From: an uncultured Albimonas sp. | GTDB lineage: Bacteria > Pseudomonadota > Alphaproteobacteria > Rhodobacterales > Rhodobacteraceae | DNA: 64,000 nucleotides | Assembly (NCBI RefSeq): GCF_963977235.1 | Contig: NZ_CAXBOD010000008.1 | Location: 37,395 to 101,394 of the forward strand | Direction: 5' to 3' | Shown: positions 6,667-17,246 of the stretch, one piece after another | How positions within the stretch are numbered: position 1 is the first letter of the stretch | Layout of the letters: every line of letters begins with the position of its first letter | The notes under the pieces: generated by a model | Database searches by the model: none | The model's input: only the letters and a program-made list of their open reading frames with translations | What the model was told of the DNA's origin: nothing | Program-made: the position numbers and the translations under genes

Positions 6667-8286
6667 TCAGGCGCCCAGGGTTTCCCGTTTGACCTCGATG
6701 CCCGCGGCCTCCCGATCCCAGACGCCCTCCACGACGCCCTCGCGGCGCAGCTCTGCCTTCTGGACCTTCAGGGTGGGGGTCTTGGGCAGCGCCGCCATCA
6801 CCCGGAAGTAGCGGGGAACCATGTAGTGAGGCATCCGCTTGCGGGCGTAGTCCAGCAGGGCCGCAGGATCGATCTCGGCGCCGGGCGCGGGCACCACCGC
6901 GACCAGCACGTCGTCTTCCCCATGCTCCGAGGTCACGGCCACCGCGGCGCACTCGGCCACGTCCGCGTGGGACTGGATCTCGATCTCCACCTCGAACGAG
7001 GAGATGTTCTCCCCCCGGCGGCGGATCGAGTCCTTCACCCGGTCGACGTAGAAATAGTTGCCCGCCGCGTCCCGGCGCAACGCGTCGCCGGTGTGGAACC
7101 AGCCGTTGCGCCAGGCCGCGGCGGTGGCCTCGGGGTTCTTGTGATAGCCCGAGCACAGCACCCAGGGATCGTCGGCGCGCAGCAGCAGCTCGCCGACCGC
7201 GCCCACCGGCAGTTCGTCGTCGTGCTCGTCCACGATCCGCGCCTCGATCCCCGGCCGGGGCCGTCCGCAGGTTCCCGGCACGTCGGGATTGATCGCGGTG
7301 ATGATCGGGGTCGAGGTCTCCGACATGTTGAAGACCGAGTAGTAGTCGAGGCCGACGCGCCGGCACAGCGCCTCGGATTCCGCGTTCGAGGGCGCAAGCA
7401 GCGCCAGGCGCAGGGGCGTGCTGGCCTCGTCCTCGTCGCGGGGACGCTTGGCGAGGAAGGTCGCCACCGTGCCCATCATCACCATGAAGGTCGCGCCCAG
7501 GGCGCGGACGTCGGCCCAGAAGGTCTCGGTCCGGAACCGCTCGAGCACCGCGATCGAGCCGCCGGTCTGCATCGCCCAGCCGATGTTCGACATGCCGGTC
7601 ACGTGGAACAGGGGCGTGTGGATCAGGCCGCGGTCCTCGGCCGTGGTCGAAGGATACGAATGCGCCGCGCAGGCGCCGAACTGCACATAGGAGGACAGCA
7701 CCGCCTTCGAGGGCCCGGTGGTGCCCGAGGTGAACAGGATCGCCTGCGTGTCCCAGGGCTGGATCGGCCGCTCGAGCGGGGGCGCCTCGGTCGACGAGCC
7801 GGCCTCGAGGACCGAGATCGGGTGCATGGCGATGCCGGGCCTCGGGGCCGGCGTCTCGCCAGCCTGGGTGAGGATGACCTCGAGCCCGGCGGGATCCACC
7901 TCGCTCAGGCGCGCGGCGAGCTGGGCGTGCGCGATCATCACCCTGGCGTCCGAGAGACGCAGCACATGCTCGAGCAGGCCGCCCTTGTAGGCGGTGTTCA
8001 TCGGCACGAAGACCGCGCCGAGGTGGTTGATCGCGGTCCACAGCCGGATCATCTCCGGCCCGTTCTCCATCCAGACCAGCACGTGATCGCCCTGGCGCAC
8101 GCCGAGCCCGCGCAGGGCGTTGGCCGCGGCGAGGGTCCTGGCGAGCAGGTCGGCCCAGCTCCAGTCGGGCGCGTCGCCGGCGAAGACGGCGAAGGGCGCG
8201 TCCGGGCGCTCGGCGGCGTGACGCTCGAGCAGGCTGCGGAACACGACGCTTTCAGGGGCGGGGATGCGGGAGGCGCGGTCGGTCAT
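6667..8286 (-). CDS. ATP-dependent acyl-CoA ligase (ANL superfamily, CaiC-like)
   Basis: 539 aa with FTSGTTGPSKAV, WFHTGDAL and KTPTLKVQKAELR. Starts 3 nt after the stop of the upstream ABC ATPase. Confidence 0.9.
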   Translation of the reverse strand: MTDRASRIPAPESVVFRSLLERHAAERPDAPFAVFAGDAPDWSWADLLARTLAAANALRGLGVRQGDHVLVWMENGPEMIRLWTAINHLGAVFVPMNTAYKGGLLEHVLRLSDARVMIAHAQLAARLSEVDPAGLEVILTQAGETPAPRPGIAMHPISVLEAGSSTEAPPLERPIQPWDTQAILFTSGTTGPSKAVLSSYVQFGACAAHSYPSTTAEDRGLIHTPLFHVTGMSNIGWAMQTGGSIAVLERFRTETFWADVRALGATFMVMMGTVATFLAKRPRDEDEASTPLRLALLAPSNAESEALCRRVGLDYYSVFNMSETSTPIITAINPDVPGTCGRPRPGIEARIVDEHDDELPVGAVGELLLRADDPWVLCSGYHKNPEATAAAWRNGWFHTGDALRRDAAGNYFYVDRVKDSIRRRGENISSFEVEIEIQSHADVAECAAVAVTSEHGEDDVLVAVVPAPGAEIDPAALLDYARKRMPHYMVPRYFRVMAALPKTPTLKVQKAELRREGVVEGVWDREAAGIEVKRETLGA

Positions 8287-8289
8287 GGC

Positions 8290-15571: not shown

Positions 15572-15665
15572 TCCCCATCGGGTCGCCCGTCCGGTCGCCG
15601 CGCCGACCCAGGGAGGGCGGAGGCGCGACGGAGCGGTCCGGCGGGCGGGCCCGAATTCGCAGGAC

Positions 15666-17246
15666 CTACTTGACCGAGACTTCCTGGAAGGTCCGCCAGA
15701 AGCCGGGGTGCGGCCAGCCGGTCCAGTCGATCCGGTCGGAATGCCAGGCCATGGTCACCAGCGGCTTGTAGGTGGTCACGCCGCCCAGCACCTTCTCGTG
15801 CTTGATGCGCGCGATCTCCTGGAGGATCTCGTCCCGCTTCGCCGGATCCAGTTCGCGCCGCTGCCGGGCGAGCAGCTCGTCGATCTCGGGCTCGTTGGCG
15901 TGGGAGTGGAAGCCGTAGCCCTTGCCGGGCTGGAAGCTGTGCAGGTGCCCCGACCAGGGAAACCCGGGGTCCGGCGGCATGTAATGGGCGTACATCATCG
16001 AGACGATGCCATCCATCTTCTCCTGCCCCTCGCCCTGGCGGCGCACGACCTGGATCCAGGCCGAGTATTCCAGGCCGATCTGCTTGCAGCGGATGCCGAT
16101 GGTGGAGAGGTAGGCGAAGAACGCCTCGCCCATCTCCTTCACGTTCGGCTCGCGCGGGGAGATCAGGTTGTAGCAGTTGGTCTCGAAGCCGTTGGGATAG
16201 CCGGCTTCGGCCAGCAGCCGCTTGGCCTTGGCGGGGTCGTAGTCGAAGGGCGTCAGGTCCTCGGACCAGCCGGGCTCGTTCTGCGAGACCTCGGTGTAGC
16301 GCTCGCCCTGGCCGAACAGCACGCTCTCGATGATCGCGTCGATGTCGGCGCCGTGGGCCACGGCCTGGCGGACGCGTTCGTCCTGGAAGGGCGAGCCCTC
16401 GATGTTGGCGGCCATGTCGAAGAACAGGTTGTTGCCGGTCGGGAAGGTGCCGGTCTCGACCCCTTCCATCTGCTCGAACTCCTCGATCATCGACAGGGGG
16501 ACGGCATCCATCCAGTCCACCTGACCGGAGCGGAAGGCCGCCACGCGCGAGATGTCCTCGGGCAGGATCTTCAGTTCCAGGCGGTCGGCGTCGGGGCGGT
16601 GGTCCTGGTTCCAGTAGCCGTCCCAGGCCTCGAACACCGCGCCCTCCTTCGGGGTGCGGGAGACGAACTTCCACGGACCGGTTCCGACCGGCTTCTGCGC
16701 GAAGCCCTCGGCGCCGACCTCCTCGAAATAGGCCTTGGGCATGGCCCACAGTTCGAGGTTGTTGATGATGTAGGTGACGTCGGGCTCGGAGAAATGGAGC
16801 TCGAAGGTCAGCTCGTCCCTGATCTCGAAGGACTCGATCTTGGCCTGCAGGTGCGACCAGTGCGACTGGTCGGGGTCGCGCAGCCGCTCCCAGGAGAACT
16901 TCATGTCTTCCGCGGTCAGCGGGTCGCCGTTGTGGAAGGTCACGTCCGGGCGAAGGCGCACCGTGATGATCGGGCGGCCGTCGTTCTCGTCGACATCGTA
17001 GGACTCGGCCAGCCAGGGCATCCGCTCGCTCCCGTCGGGCGAGGGGCGGAGCAGCTGCTCGAACATCTGGGCGATGTAGTACATGTCCACGCCCTGGGCG
17101 TACTTCACCGGGTCCATGTTGGTGGGCTCGGCGCCGAGCGCGGCGGTGATCGTGCGGTCCTGGGCGAGGGCGGGTCCGACGGGCGGCGCAAACCACACGG
17201 CTGCGCAGACCGCCGCGGCGCCTAGCAGGCGCGGGCTTCTGGTCAT
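15666..17246 (-). CDS. ABC transporter substrate-binding protein, family 5 (peptide/nickel/opine type)
   Basis: Signal peptide MTRSPRLLGAAAVCAAVWFAPPVGPALAQ, then full-length SBP_bac_5-like sequence (KPVGTGPWKFVSRTP). The ATG at 17246 follows GGGAGGAG. Confidence 0.9.
   Translation of the reverse strand: MTRSPRLLGAAAVCAAVWFAPPVGPALAQDRTITAALGAEPTNMDPVKYAQGVDMYYIAQMFEQLLRPSPDGSERMPWLAESYDVDENDGRPIITVRLRPDVTFHNGDPLTAEDMKFSWERLRDPDQSHWSHLQAKIESFEIRDELTFELHFSEPDVTYIINNLELWAMPKAYFEEVGAEGFAQKPVGTGPWKFVSRTPKEGAVFEAWDGYWNQDHRPDADRLELKILPEDISRVAAFRSGQVDWMDAVPLSMIEEFEQMEGVETGTFPTGNNLFFDMAANIEGSPFQDERVRQAVAHGADIDAIIESVLFGQGERYTEVSQNEPGWSEDLTPFDYDPAKAKRLLAEAGYPNGFETNCYNLISPREPNVKEMGEAFFAYLSTIGIRCKQIGLEYSAWIQVVRRQGEGQEKMDGIVSMMYAHYMPPDPGFPWSGHLHSFQPGKGYGFHSHANEPEIDELLARQRRELDPAKRDEILQEIARIKHEKVLGGVTTYKPLVTMAWHSDRIDWTGWPHPGFWRTFQEVSVK

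Follow-up and report, generated by a model that had tools for sequence, protein, structure and literature searches.

The stretch analysed here, called the window, comprises 64,000 nucleotides of contig NZ_CAXBOD010000008.1 from an uncultured Albimonas sp. (Rhodobacteraceae; assembly GCF_963977235.1, positions 37,395 to 101,394). Its minus strand carries, from position 17246 down to 6667, seven intact open reading frames (ORFs) that encode a family-5 substrate-binding protein (SBP), a single-chain acyl-CoA carboxylase of the LCC (long-chain acyl-CoA carboxylase) family, two permeases and two ATPases of an Opp/Dpp-type ATP-binding cassette (ABC) importer, and an ANL acyl-CoA ligase (LIG1), in this order (Table 1). 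The ORF calls agree with a first-pass annotation of this DNA in the order and all coordinates of the seven genes and in the close spacing with overlapping stops and starts: the successive gaps are 187, 12, −11, −4, −8 and 3 nt. The start of the first ATPase gene, 10345, also matches an independent gene call in L169 (such numbers denote the loci compared), which comes from a near-identical strain and was assembled independently (ENA). L169 shows the gene order of the window at 99.85% identity over 9948 nt, and a chimeric assembly is thus ruled out. The GC content of the window is ~71%, and genuine reading frames in it are marked by a GC fraction at third codon positions (GC3) above 0.9. The GC3 of the SBP, LCC, permease and ligase genes is 0.92-0.96, and both ATPase genes match the genome's signature by inspection. 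No compositional break was found around the LCC gene, and neither repeats nor mobile-element remnants were found flanking it.

Table 1. Coordinates of the seven-gene string, its subregions and possible accessory genes in the window
Feature	Position	Strand	Description
SBP, family 5 (Opp/Dpp/Nik type), periplasmic	15666..17246	-	526 aa; first gene; SBP_bac_5
SBP-LCC spacer	15479..15665	-	187 nt; GC-rich, stable stem-loops
Single-chain LCC-family acyl-CoA carboxylase	12164..15478	-	1104 aa, without internal stop
LCC, biotin carboxylase (BC) domain	14039-15478 (aa ~1-480)	-	Pfam
LCC, biotin carboxyl carrier protein (BCCP) domain	aa ~500-581	-	biotinyl-K533
LCC, carboxyltransferase (CT) domain	12167-13723 (aa ~586-1104)	-	Pfam
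LCC-permease junction, GAGAGAGGCGCG	12152..12163	-	12 nt; holds the permease Shine-Dalgarno sequence
ABC permease 1, DppB/NikB-like	11231..12151	-	306 aa; BPD_transp_1 + BPD_transp_1_N
ABC permease 2, DppC/NikC-like	10342..11241	-	299 aa; BPD_transp_1 + OppC_N; 11-nt overlap with permease 1
ABC ATPase 1, OppD/DppD-like	9326..10345	-	339 aa; ABC_tran + oligo_HPY; ATGA overlap with permease 2
ABC ATPase 2, OppF/DppF-like	8290..9333	-	347 aa; ABC_tran + oligo_HPY; 8-nt overlap with ATPase 1
ANL acyl-CoA ligase LIG1	6667..8286	-	539 aa; 3 nt past ATPase 2; AMP-binding + AMP-binding_C
Possible accessory: TetR regulator	5816-6544	-	Pfam, NCBIfam, spacing
Possible accessory: second ANL ligase LIG2	3935-5581	-	Pfam, NCBIfam, spacing
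Possible accessory: acyl-CoA dehydrogenase	2758-3891	-	Pfam, NCBIfam, spacing
Possible accessory: MDR-family NAD(P)H oxidoreductase	17636..18667	-	ADH_N, ADH_zinc_N; 389 nt upstream of the SBP gene

The carboxylase bears the Pfam domains Biotin_carb_N, CPSase_L_D2, Biotin_carb_C, Biotin_lipoyl and Carboxyl_trans in this order on one chain, which confirms the BC-biotinyl-CT layout first read from the letters. Its likeness to the LCC of Mycobacterium avium subsp. paratuberculosis (MapLCC), noted in the first-pass annotation, is also correct: the protein matches 4rcn_A with 1003.9 bits (E = 9.7e-301), residues 3-1082 of the query aligning with residues 3-1071 of the chain. In an alignment of ten homologues of 60-68% identity, the BC motifs GGGGRG (167-172) and EANPRLQVEH (297-306), the biotinyl-lysine K533 with the adjoining M534 (in EALKMQ, residues 530-535), and the CT glycine motifs AEGGGGRPGD (E723-R728) and LRKGYGLGA (R986-A993) are all invariant. 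We take the catalytic roles of these motifs to be those of their counterparts in E. coli BC and PccB. Because the catalytic motifs are invariant across the homologues, the CT domain is not the degenerate, non-catalytic copy that the first-pass annotation had considered as a counter-explanation. Among 36 LCCs, a Leu instead of the usual Met before the biotinyl-lysine is present only in the window, its re-assembly and L001; we read EALKMQ as a lineage marker rather than a defect.

The SBP belongs to the Pfam family SBP_bac_5 (E = 2.9e-76), and a GGAGGAG Shine-Dalgarno sequence lies 6 nt ahead of its ATG. It is 100% identical to a protein deposited under the name uncultured Albimonas sp. All seven gene products stay under the curated NCBIfam cut-offs, and none of the importer parts can be equated with a characterized specificity (dipeptide, oligopeptide, nickel, glutathione or opine-metallophore). 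The SBP scores 137 bits against a cut-off of 393 for NikA, 115 against 650 for Opp4A, 105 against 594 for GsiB and 99 against 1005 for DppA. The permeases come nearest to their cut-offs, with the nickel-type Opp2B (319/350) and Opp2C (269/300), and NikB is also among the best matches of permease 1. The solved structure nearest to the SBP (E = 2.6e-37) has no named ligand. LIG1 is, by its profile and structure matches, a generic ANL enzyme: its best NCBIfam match, PRK06155, stays under the cut-off (481/722), and its nearest structure is FadD5 (E = 7e-57). LIG1 is 58% identical to the ligase directly downstream of the LCC gene in L001, the locus with the closest LCC, and 74% identical to the ligase in the same position in Albimonas sp. 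CAU 1670. A second Opp/Dpp-type operon lies on the plus strand of the window (53641-58848), with 27% identity to the LCC-bearing operon in the SBP, 42% in the permeases and 47-48% in the ATPases. It has neither an interposed enzyme gene nor a ligase gene and therefore serves as an internal contrast.

To explore the conservation of the neighbourhood, we scanned from the importer side, with one genome per GTDB species and an alignment of SBP orthologues as the query, and located the cluster genes by tblastn. A locus was regarded as informative if an LCC was seen or if at least 9 kb of downstream sequence was available, and linkage means an LCC within 10 kb. For SBPs of at least 50% identity, a single-chain LCC is linked at 29 of 34 informative loci, each from a different species; for SBPs of 43-50% identity, the LCC is found at only 1 of 25 loci (P ~ 1e-10, Fisher's exact test). 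The window SBP is 55-71% identical to the SBPs of the clusters, and identity between the importer-linked LCCs and that of the window is 50-62%. Among the carriers are Bradyrhizobium, Reyranellaceae, Acetobacteraceae, Xanthobacteraceae, Phreatobacter, Cupriavidus, Pseudorhodoferax and Alkalilimnicola, and the importer, a CoA-activating enzyme and LCC occur together in ~30 species of Alpha-, Beta- and Gammaproteobacteria. Moreover, independent gene calls and precomputed Pfam assignments confirm the cluster in L008 (a metagenome-assembled genome, MAG, of Paracoccaceae), L170 (A. donghaensis), L172 and L174 (CAU 1670). The gene-neighbourhood comparison suggested in the first-pass annotation thus finds the linkage kept, and its statement that such a carboxylase was not known as an integral part of an importer operon has to be divided: the linkage itself is widespread, and the position between the SBP and permease genes is indeed rare.

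Catabolic operons that join an importer and a CoA ligase are familiar, and both the enzyme family and the importer type were known. In the searchable literature we found no account of a single-chain LCC that is systematically linked to a dedicated importer of PepT type and to a CoA-activating enzyme, and no LCC gene inside an importer operon is described in the open-access papers that mention LCC, although the original LCC paper may mention the linkage or the gene neighbourhoods. A metagenome scan from the LCC side used back-translated patterns that amounted to generic BC motifs, and 75 of its 80 loci were ordinary biotin carboxylases and four were close LCCs. SBPs below 50% identity were dropped as a guide to the ligand, their contexts being heterogeneous and uninformative. 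In L008 (11683-20521), the permease, ATPase and carboxylase genes are fragmented by frameshift, which mimics alpha and beta subunits and could mislead automated annotation; a two-subunit reading of this carboxylase was given up, and in view of its 60-65% identity with the window LCC in both BC and CT and of the many frameshifts in the MAG, it is regarded as a broken LCC.

In the usual layout, a divergent GntR/FCD regulator gene (found at 29 of the 49 loci whose upstream sequence is long enough) is followed by the genes for SBP, permease, permease, ATPase, ATPase, CoA-activating enzyme and LCC. The activating enzyme is almost always found in the ABC-LCC clusters, and its slot is filled by three unrelated proteins. 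These are LIG1, which the window shares with Albimonas sp. CAU 1670; LigC, an ANL ligase that is 27-32% identical to either window ligase and passes the NCBIfam equivalog NF004822 ("acyl-CoA synthetase"); and a tandem family III CoA-transferase of ~750 aa (CoA_transf_3), whose C-terminal half resembles small-dicarboxylate enzymes, namely succinate-glutarate CoA-transferase, YfdE, SUGCT and formyl-CoA transferase. The gene order is also variable. In Cupriavidus, the pair LCC-LigC is upstream of the SBP gene, and in L063 LCC alone is directly upstream of it. In Phreatobacter and some Acetobacteraceae (L011, L017, L021, L026 and L029), LigC lies between the SBP and permease genes; because a ligase and not LCC is found there, enzyme genes have been placed at the post-SBP position more than once. 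The retention of three functions, one of them displaced non-orthologously, while the gene order shuffles is a classic sign of a functional module.

Two candidates for further cluster members were rejected. LIG2, which a single-linkage family had hinted at as the cluster ligase, has a tblastn identity of only 28-32%, and beta-oxidation genes do not belong to the core, as thiolase, enoyl-CoA hydratase, short-chain dehydrogenase/reductase, acyl-CoA dehydrogenase and medium-chain dehydrogenase/reductase (MDR) genes were found in few canonical clusters. Some loci deviate in content. L016 (Reyranellaceae) and L019 (an alphaproteobacterial MAG) keep the importer and a tandem CoA-transferase that is 89% identical to that of L015, and show no LCC in the 3.5 kb after it; L012 and L014 have an orphan SBP gene, with neither permease genes nor LCC; and L056 has a full importer and lacks both activating enzyme and LCC. 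Extra family-5 SBP paralogues are present at some ABC-LCC loci. A second acyl-CoA carboxylase, of two-subunit type, is encoded a few kb upstream of the SBP gene in L011 (5977-8924), L023 (847-3683) and L045 (4906-8431), with 45-49% identity to the window LCC in BC and 26-33% in CT.

Only the window, its re-assembly L169 and L004 were seen to have the LCC gene placed between those for SBP and permease. L004 is a short contig of 63% GC, with 70 nt between the SBP stop and the start of LCC. The SBPs of L004 and the window share 71% identity and pair off, at 55-61% identity to all other SBPs; the L004 LCC is 71% identical to that of L001. Albimonas sp. CAU 1670 has the cluster genes arranged as SBP, permease, permease, ATPase, ATPase, LCC and LIG1, and identity with the window is 74% in LIG1, 57-69% in the ABC parts and 52% in LCC. 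Both CAU 1670 and A. donghaensis have uninterrupted ABC genes with LCC 3' of them. The congeners thus carry the carboxylase on the 3' side of the operon, and do not show the importer operon lacking it that the first-pass annotation would have read as a sign of recent insertion. In the window, the slot between ATPase 2 and LIG1, which is the site of LCC in CAU 1670, is closed to 3 nt.

The relationships among 39 LCCs were estimated by neighbor joining with Kimura-corrected distances and 100 bootstraps, a simple method of which only the well-supported nodes are used. The LCCs of the two cultured Albimonas are sisters (bootstrap 100) within a deep clade that is otherwise linked to the tandem CoA-transferase. 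The window LCC groups with L001 (bootstrap 99) and L003 (85), across a split (100) from the cultured Albimonas. Because the congeners have LCC at the 3' side and of another clade, the internal LCC of the window is most likely a lineage-specific rearrangement or replacement; judged from these comparisons, its placement is not an insertion of unrelated function. Even where an LCC of another clade has taken its place, the operon still has an LCC, and such retention or re-acquisition suggests selection on the combination rather than chance adjacency.

The junctions also bear on how the genes are expressed. The LCC-permease junction reads TAG-GAGAGAGGCGCG-ATG, the ribosome-binding site of the permease fills the entire gap, and 12 nt therefore leave no room for a terminator or promoter. 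Because of this junction, the permease, ATPase and ligase genes should depend on transcription through LCC, unless a promoter lies inside the LCC gene. The 187-nt spacer between SBP and LCC folds with a minimum free energy of −95.4 kcal/mol (z = −2.05) and has no T-tract. A scan of this spacer for a sigma-70-like site, promoter or terminator pattern gave none and was not above shuffle expectation, and no riboswitch or known RNA was matched in Rfam, either in 2351 nt around two spacers or in the whole window. Four relatives have a hairpin of 11-15 bp right after the SBP stop, with a permease or LCC gene next, three of them with z from −2.0 to −2.6. In ABC operons, post-SBP hairpins are known to keep the mRNA of the binding protein in excess over that of distal genes. 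As LCC is distal to the post-SBP hairpin, it may share the expression class of the membrane components. The spacing supports a single transcription unit from LCC to the ligase, and we infer that the seven genes are probably co-transcribed. A perfect palindrome of 13 nt, GTTCGA-A-TCGAAC, is present at window positions 17301-17313, 55-67 nt upstream of the SBP start, as a candidate operator; without mismatches it occurs just once in the window, and its count at up to 2 mismatches is not above shuffle expectation.

It is thus probable, although by no means certain, that the seven genes constitute one uptake-and-activation module for what is likely a polar organic acid, and that the window presents a gene-order variant of a widespread cluster. 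The periplasmic family-5 SBP would capture the compound, which would be imported via the two permeases and the two Opp/Dpp-type ATPases, and the ANL ligase would turn its carboxylate into a CoA thioester. The BC domain would then load CO2, from bicarbonate and ATP, onto biotinyl-K533, and the CT domain would move it onto the acyl-CoA, the alpha-carbon being the most likely site; a substituted malonyl-CoA would result and be broken down further. In other words, the imported compound would be a carboxylic acid that is activated by the ligase, or by the CoA-transferase in relatives, and then carboxylated by LCC. The route of import, CoA activation and carboxylation proposed in the first-pass annotation appears well supported by the conserved linkage (29/34) and the swapped activating enzyme. 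The SBP-dependent importer and the dicarboxylate-type CoA-transferases point to an acid that is polar and not to a long-chain fatty acid, which is a lead and not a finding, and the importer linkage makes it doubtful whether the importer-linked LCCs naturally act on long-chain acyl-CoA.

Several observations weigh against this module. Five of the 34 informative SBP loci lack LCC. The closest relatives of the window LCC, in L001 (68% identity), L003 (64%) and L002 (Zavarzinia, 61%), have no adjoining ABC genes, and the same is true of the four LCCs from the metagenome scan and one from Parvibaculum; since eight LCC-centered contexts lack the importer, LCC evidently also works without it. Consistent downstream catabolic genes were not found in the canonical clusters, and the 187-nt spacer could hold an unrecognized promoter or attenuator. 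Family-5 SBPs classically bind peptides, nickel complexes or opines and not simple acids. Furthermore, the characterized LCCs, from Mycobacterium and Pseudomonas, prefer long-chain acyl-CoAs in vitro according to a passage of PMC6491548 that cites Tran 2015 (Nature 518:120), and such substrates would need no importer of this kind.

The main rival explanation is an indirect coupling, in which the importer brings in a peptide-like or amino-acid-derived nutrient that, once broken down, yields a short acid or an acyl-CoA of a common kind (propionyl-, butyryl- or branched). The ligase would scavenge the free acid, LCC would be a broad carboxylase feeding central metabolism, and the imported molecule would never become a CoA ester. 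This would agree with the SBP, permeases and ATPases being typical Opp/Dpp/Nik-type parts, with the lack of further dedicated catabolic enzymes in canonical clusters, and with the activity of LCC on C2-C16 acyl-CoAs reported in a passage of PMC6491548. However, the clusters share no conserved peptidase, amidase or deaminase; the activating enzyme is not only almost always present but immediately adjacent, as expected if the imported compound is activated directly; and the tandem CoA-transferase is similar, in its C-terminal half, to enzymes whose substrates are free small dicarboxylates. We consider the indirect coupling unlikely, though well ahead of the two explanations that follow. The cluster might be a biosynthetic module, in which a salvaged or imported acid is activated and carboxylated to alkylmalonyl-CoA, which would serve as extender or building block in making a lipid or a polyketide-like compound. 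Acyl-CoA carboxylases of actinobacteria are known to make alkylmalonyl-CoA extender units, but no ketosynthase, polyketide synthase or lipid-assembly gene is conserved near the clusters, and the divergent GntR/FCD regulator (29/49 loci) together with an SBP-dependent importer is typical of catabolic operons, so that this explanation is very improbable. A meaningless adjacency, due to a recent rearrangement that put LCC into the operon with its own promoter in the 187-nt spacer, is disfavored to a similar or slightly greater degree. The internal position is rare, the window LCC is of another clade than those of the congeners, its closest relatives are not ABC-linked, and the spacer is long enough for a promoter; nevertheless, the importer and LCC are linked in 29 of 34 species, the 12-nt junction ties the importer genes to transcription through LCC, there is no compositional break, mobile-element remnant or flanking repeat at LCC, and the same SBP-LCC order recurs in the diverged L004.

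A wider reading can be put forward tentatively, with less than even confidence: the name "long-chain" may be wrong for many members of the LCC family, whose natural job in a large part of the Proteobacteria could be the committed step of an undescribed carboxylation-dependent catabolic route. The substrate of that route would be an organic acid of polar, peptide- or opine-like nature, which a dedicated PepT-type importer would take up. In that case the binding protein of the importer would be a direct handle on the compound. The importer linkage offers a practical route to the natural substrate of LCC via the ligand of the SBP, and cultured carriers for genetics exist in Albimonas sp. CAU 1670, A. 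donghaensis, Cupriavidus necator and Bradyrhizobium. A polar acid as the ligand would mean both a new carboxylation-dependent catabolic pathway and a new ligand class for family-5 binding proteins.

Around the seven genes, the window contains further genes of acyl-CoA metabolism and transport. The MDR oxidoreductase upstream of the SBP gene matches a quinone-reductase subfamily under the NCBIfam cut-off, and MDR reductases are also near LCC in L001, L003 and L172. In the region 800-6544, an enoyl-CoA hydratase gene and an IclR regulator gene are on the strand opposite to the TetR, LIG2 and acyl-CoA dehydrogenase genes. This beta-oxidation-like set resembles the LCC surroundings in L001 and L003, where related acyl-CoA dehydrogenase and ligase genes flank LCC, and not the canonical ABC-linked clusters. 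In L001 (15038-17815 and 19884-23300) and L003 (6706-8102), LCC adjoins genes for an APH-type kinase, a DUF6285 protein and an acyl-CoA dehydrogenase, a trio that we take to recall LvaABC of levulinate and 4-hydroxyacid catabolism. The L001 LCC gene also adjoins type IV secretion genes (VirB8, CagX and TrbL), which suggests a mobile element. Divergent from the MDR reductase gene, plus-strand genes at 18589-22185 encode a tripartite ATP-independent periplasmic (TRAP) transporter (DctP, DctQ and likely DctM), followed by the gene of a thiamine diphosphate (ThDP)-dependent enzyme at 23009-24667 (+).

Among known systems, the closest to the carboxylase is MapLCC. The structure of the single-chain LCC was reportedly solved in 2015, with its physiological substrate and pathway left open. 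The window protein shares with MapLCC the BC-BCCP-CT architecture on a single chain of ~1100 aa, homology from end to end, and the conserved BC and CT motifs and biotinyl-lysine. It differs in the biotin motif, EALKMQ as against EAMKM, and in the setting of its gene inside an ABC importer operon, which is not described for the characterized enzymes in searchable papers; a homo-hexameric, domain-swapped holoenzyme and a preference for long-chain acyl-CoAs are features of the characterized enzymes that the window protein may share. In the LCC assays covered by a passage of PMC6491548, carboxylation takes place at the alpha-carbon. The Pseudomonas homolog PA1400 was still named "pyruvate carboxylase" in a 2023 paper (PMC9894557). 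Another bacterial acyl-CoA carboxylase on one polypeptide, as in the window, is SACE_4237 of Saccharopolyspora erythraea, a multidomain acetyl/propionyl-CoA carboxylase that forms a homodimer and accepts short-chain substrates only (PMC6491548). The window protein, in contrast, is LCC-type by its homology with 4rcn, and LCC-type CT domains form a phylogenetic group separate from SACE_4237 (PMC6491548).

The Atu/Liu clusters of Pseudomonas are similar in that they process an organic acid in the form of its CoA ester, and the next step is enabled by a biotin-dependent acyl-CoA carboxylase whose gene belongs to the catabolic cluster. Their geranyl-CoA and 3-methylcrotonyl-CoA carboxylases are two-subunit alpha6beta6 enzymes that carboxylate the gamma-carbon, and their genes have hydratase and lyase genes as neighbours and are not accompanied by an SBP-dependent importer (PMC4673880). 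The window enzyme, however, is single-chain, with the importer as its constant partner and no conserved hydratase or lyase. With the Opp/Dpp/Nik importers (PepT, TC 3.A.1.5), the window operon has in common a family-5 SBP, two BPD_transp_1 permeases and two oligo_HPY ATPases, the canonical gene order, overlaps between genes, and a hairpin that follows the SBP gene. It departs from them in an SBP that scores far under every curated equivalog cut-off, and in a 3.3-kb enzyme gene interposed and a ligase gene appended.

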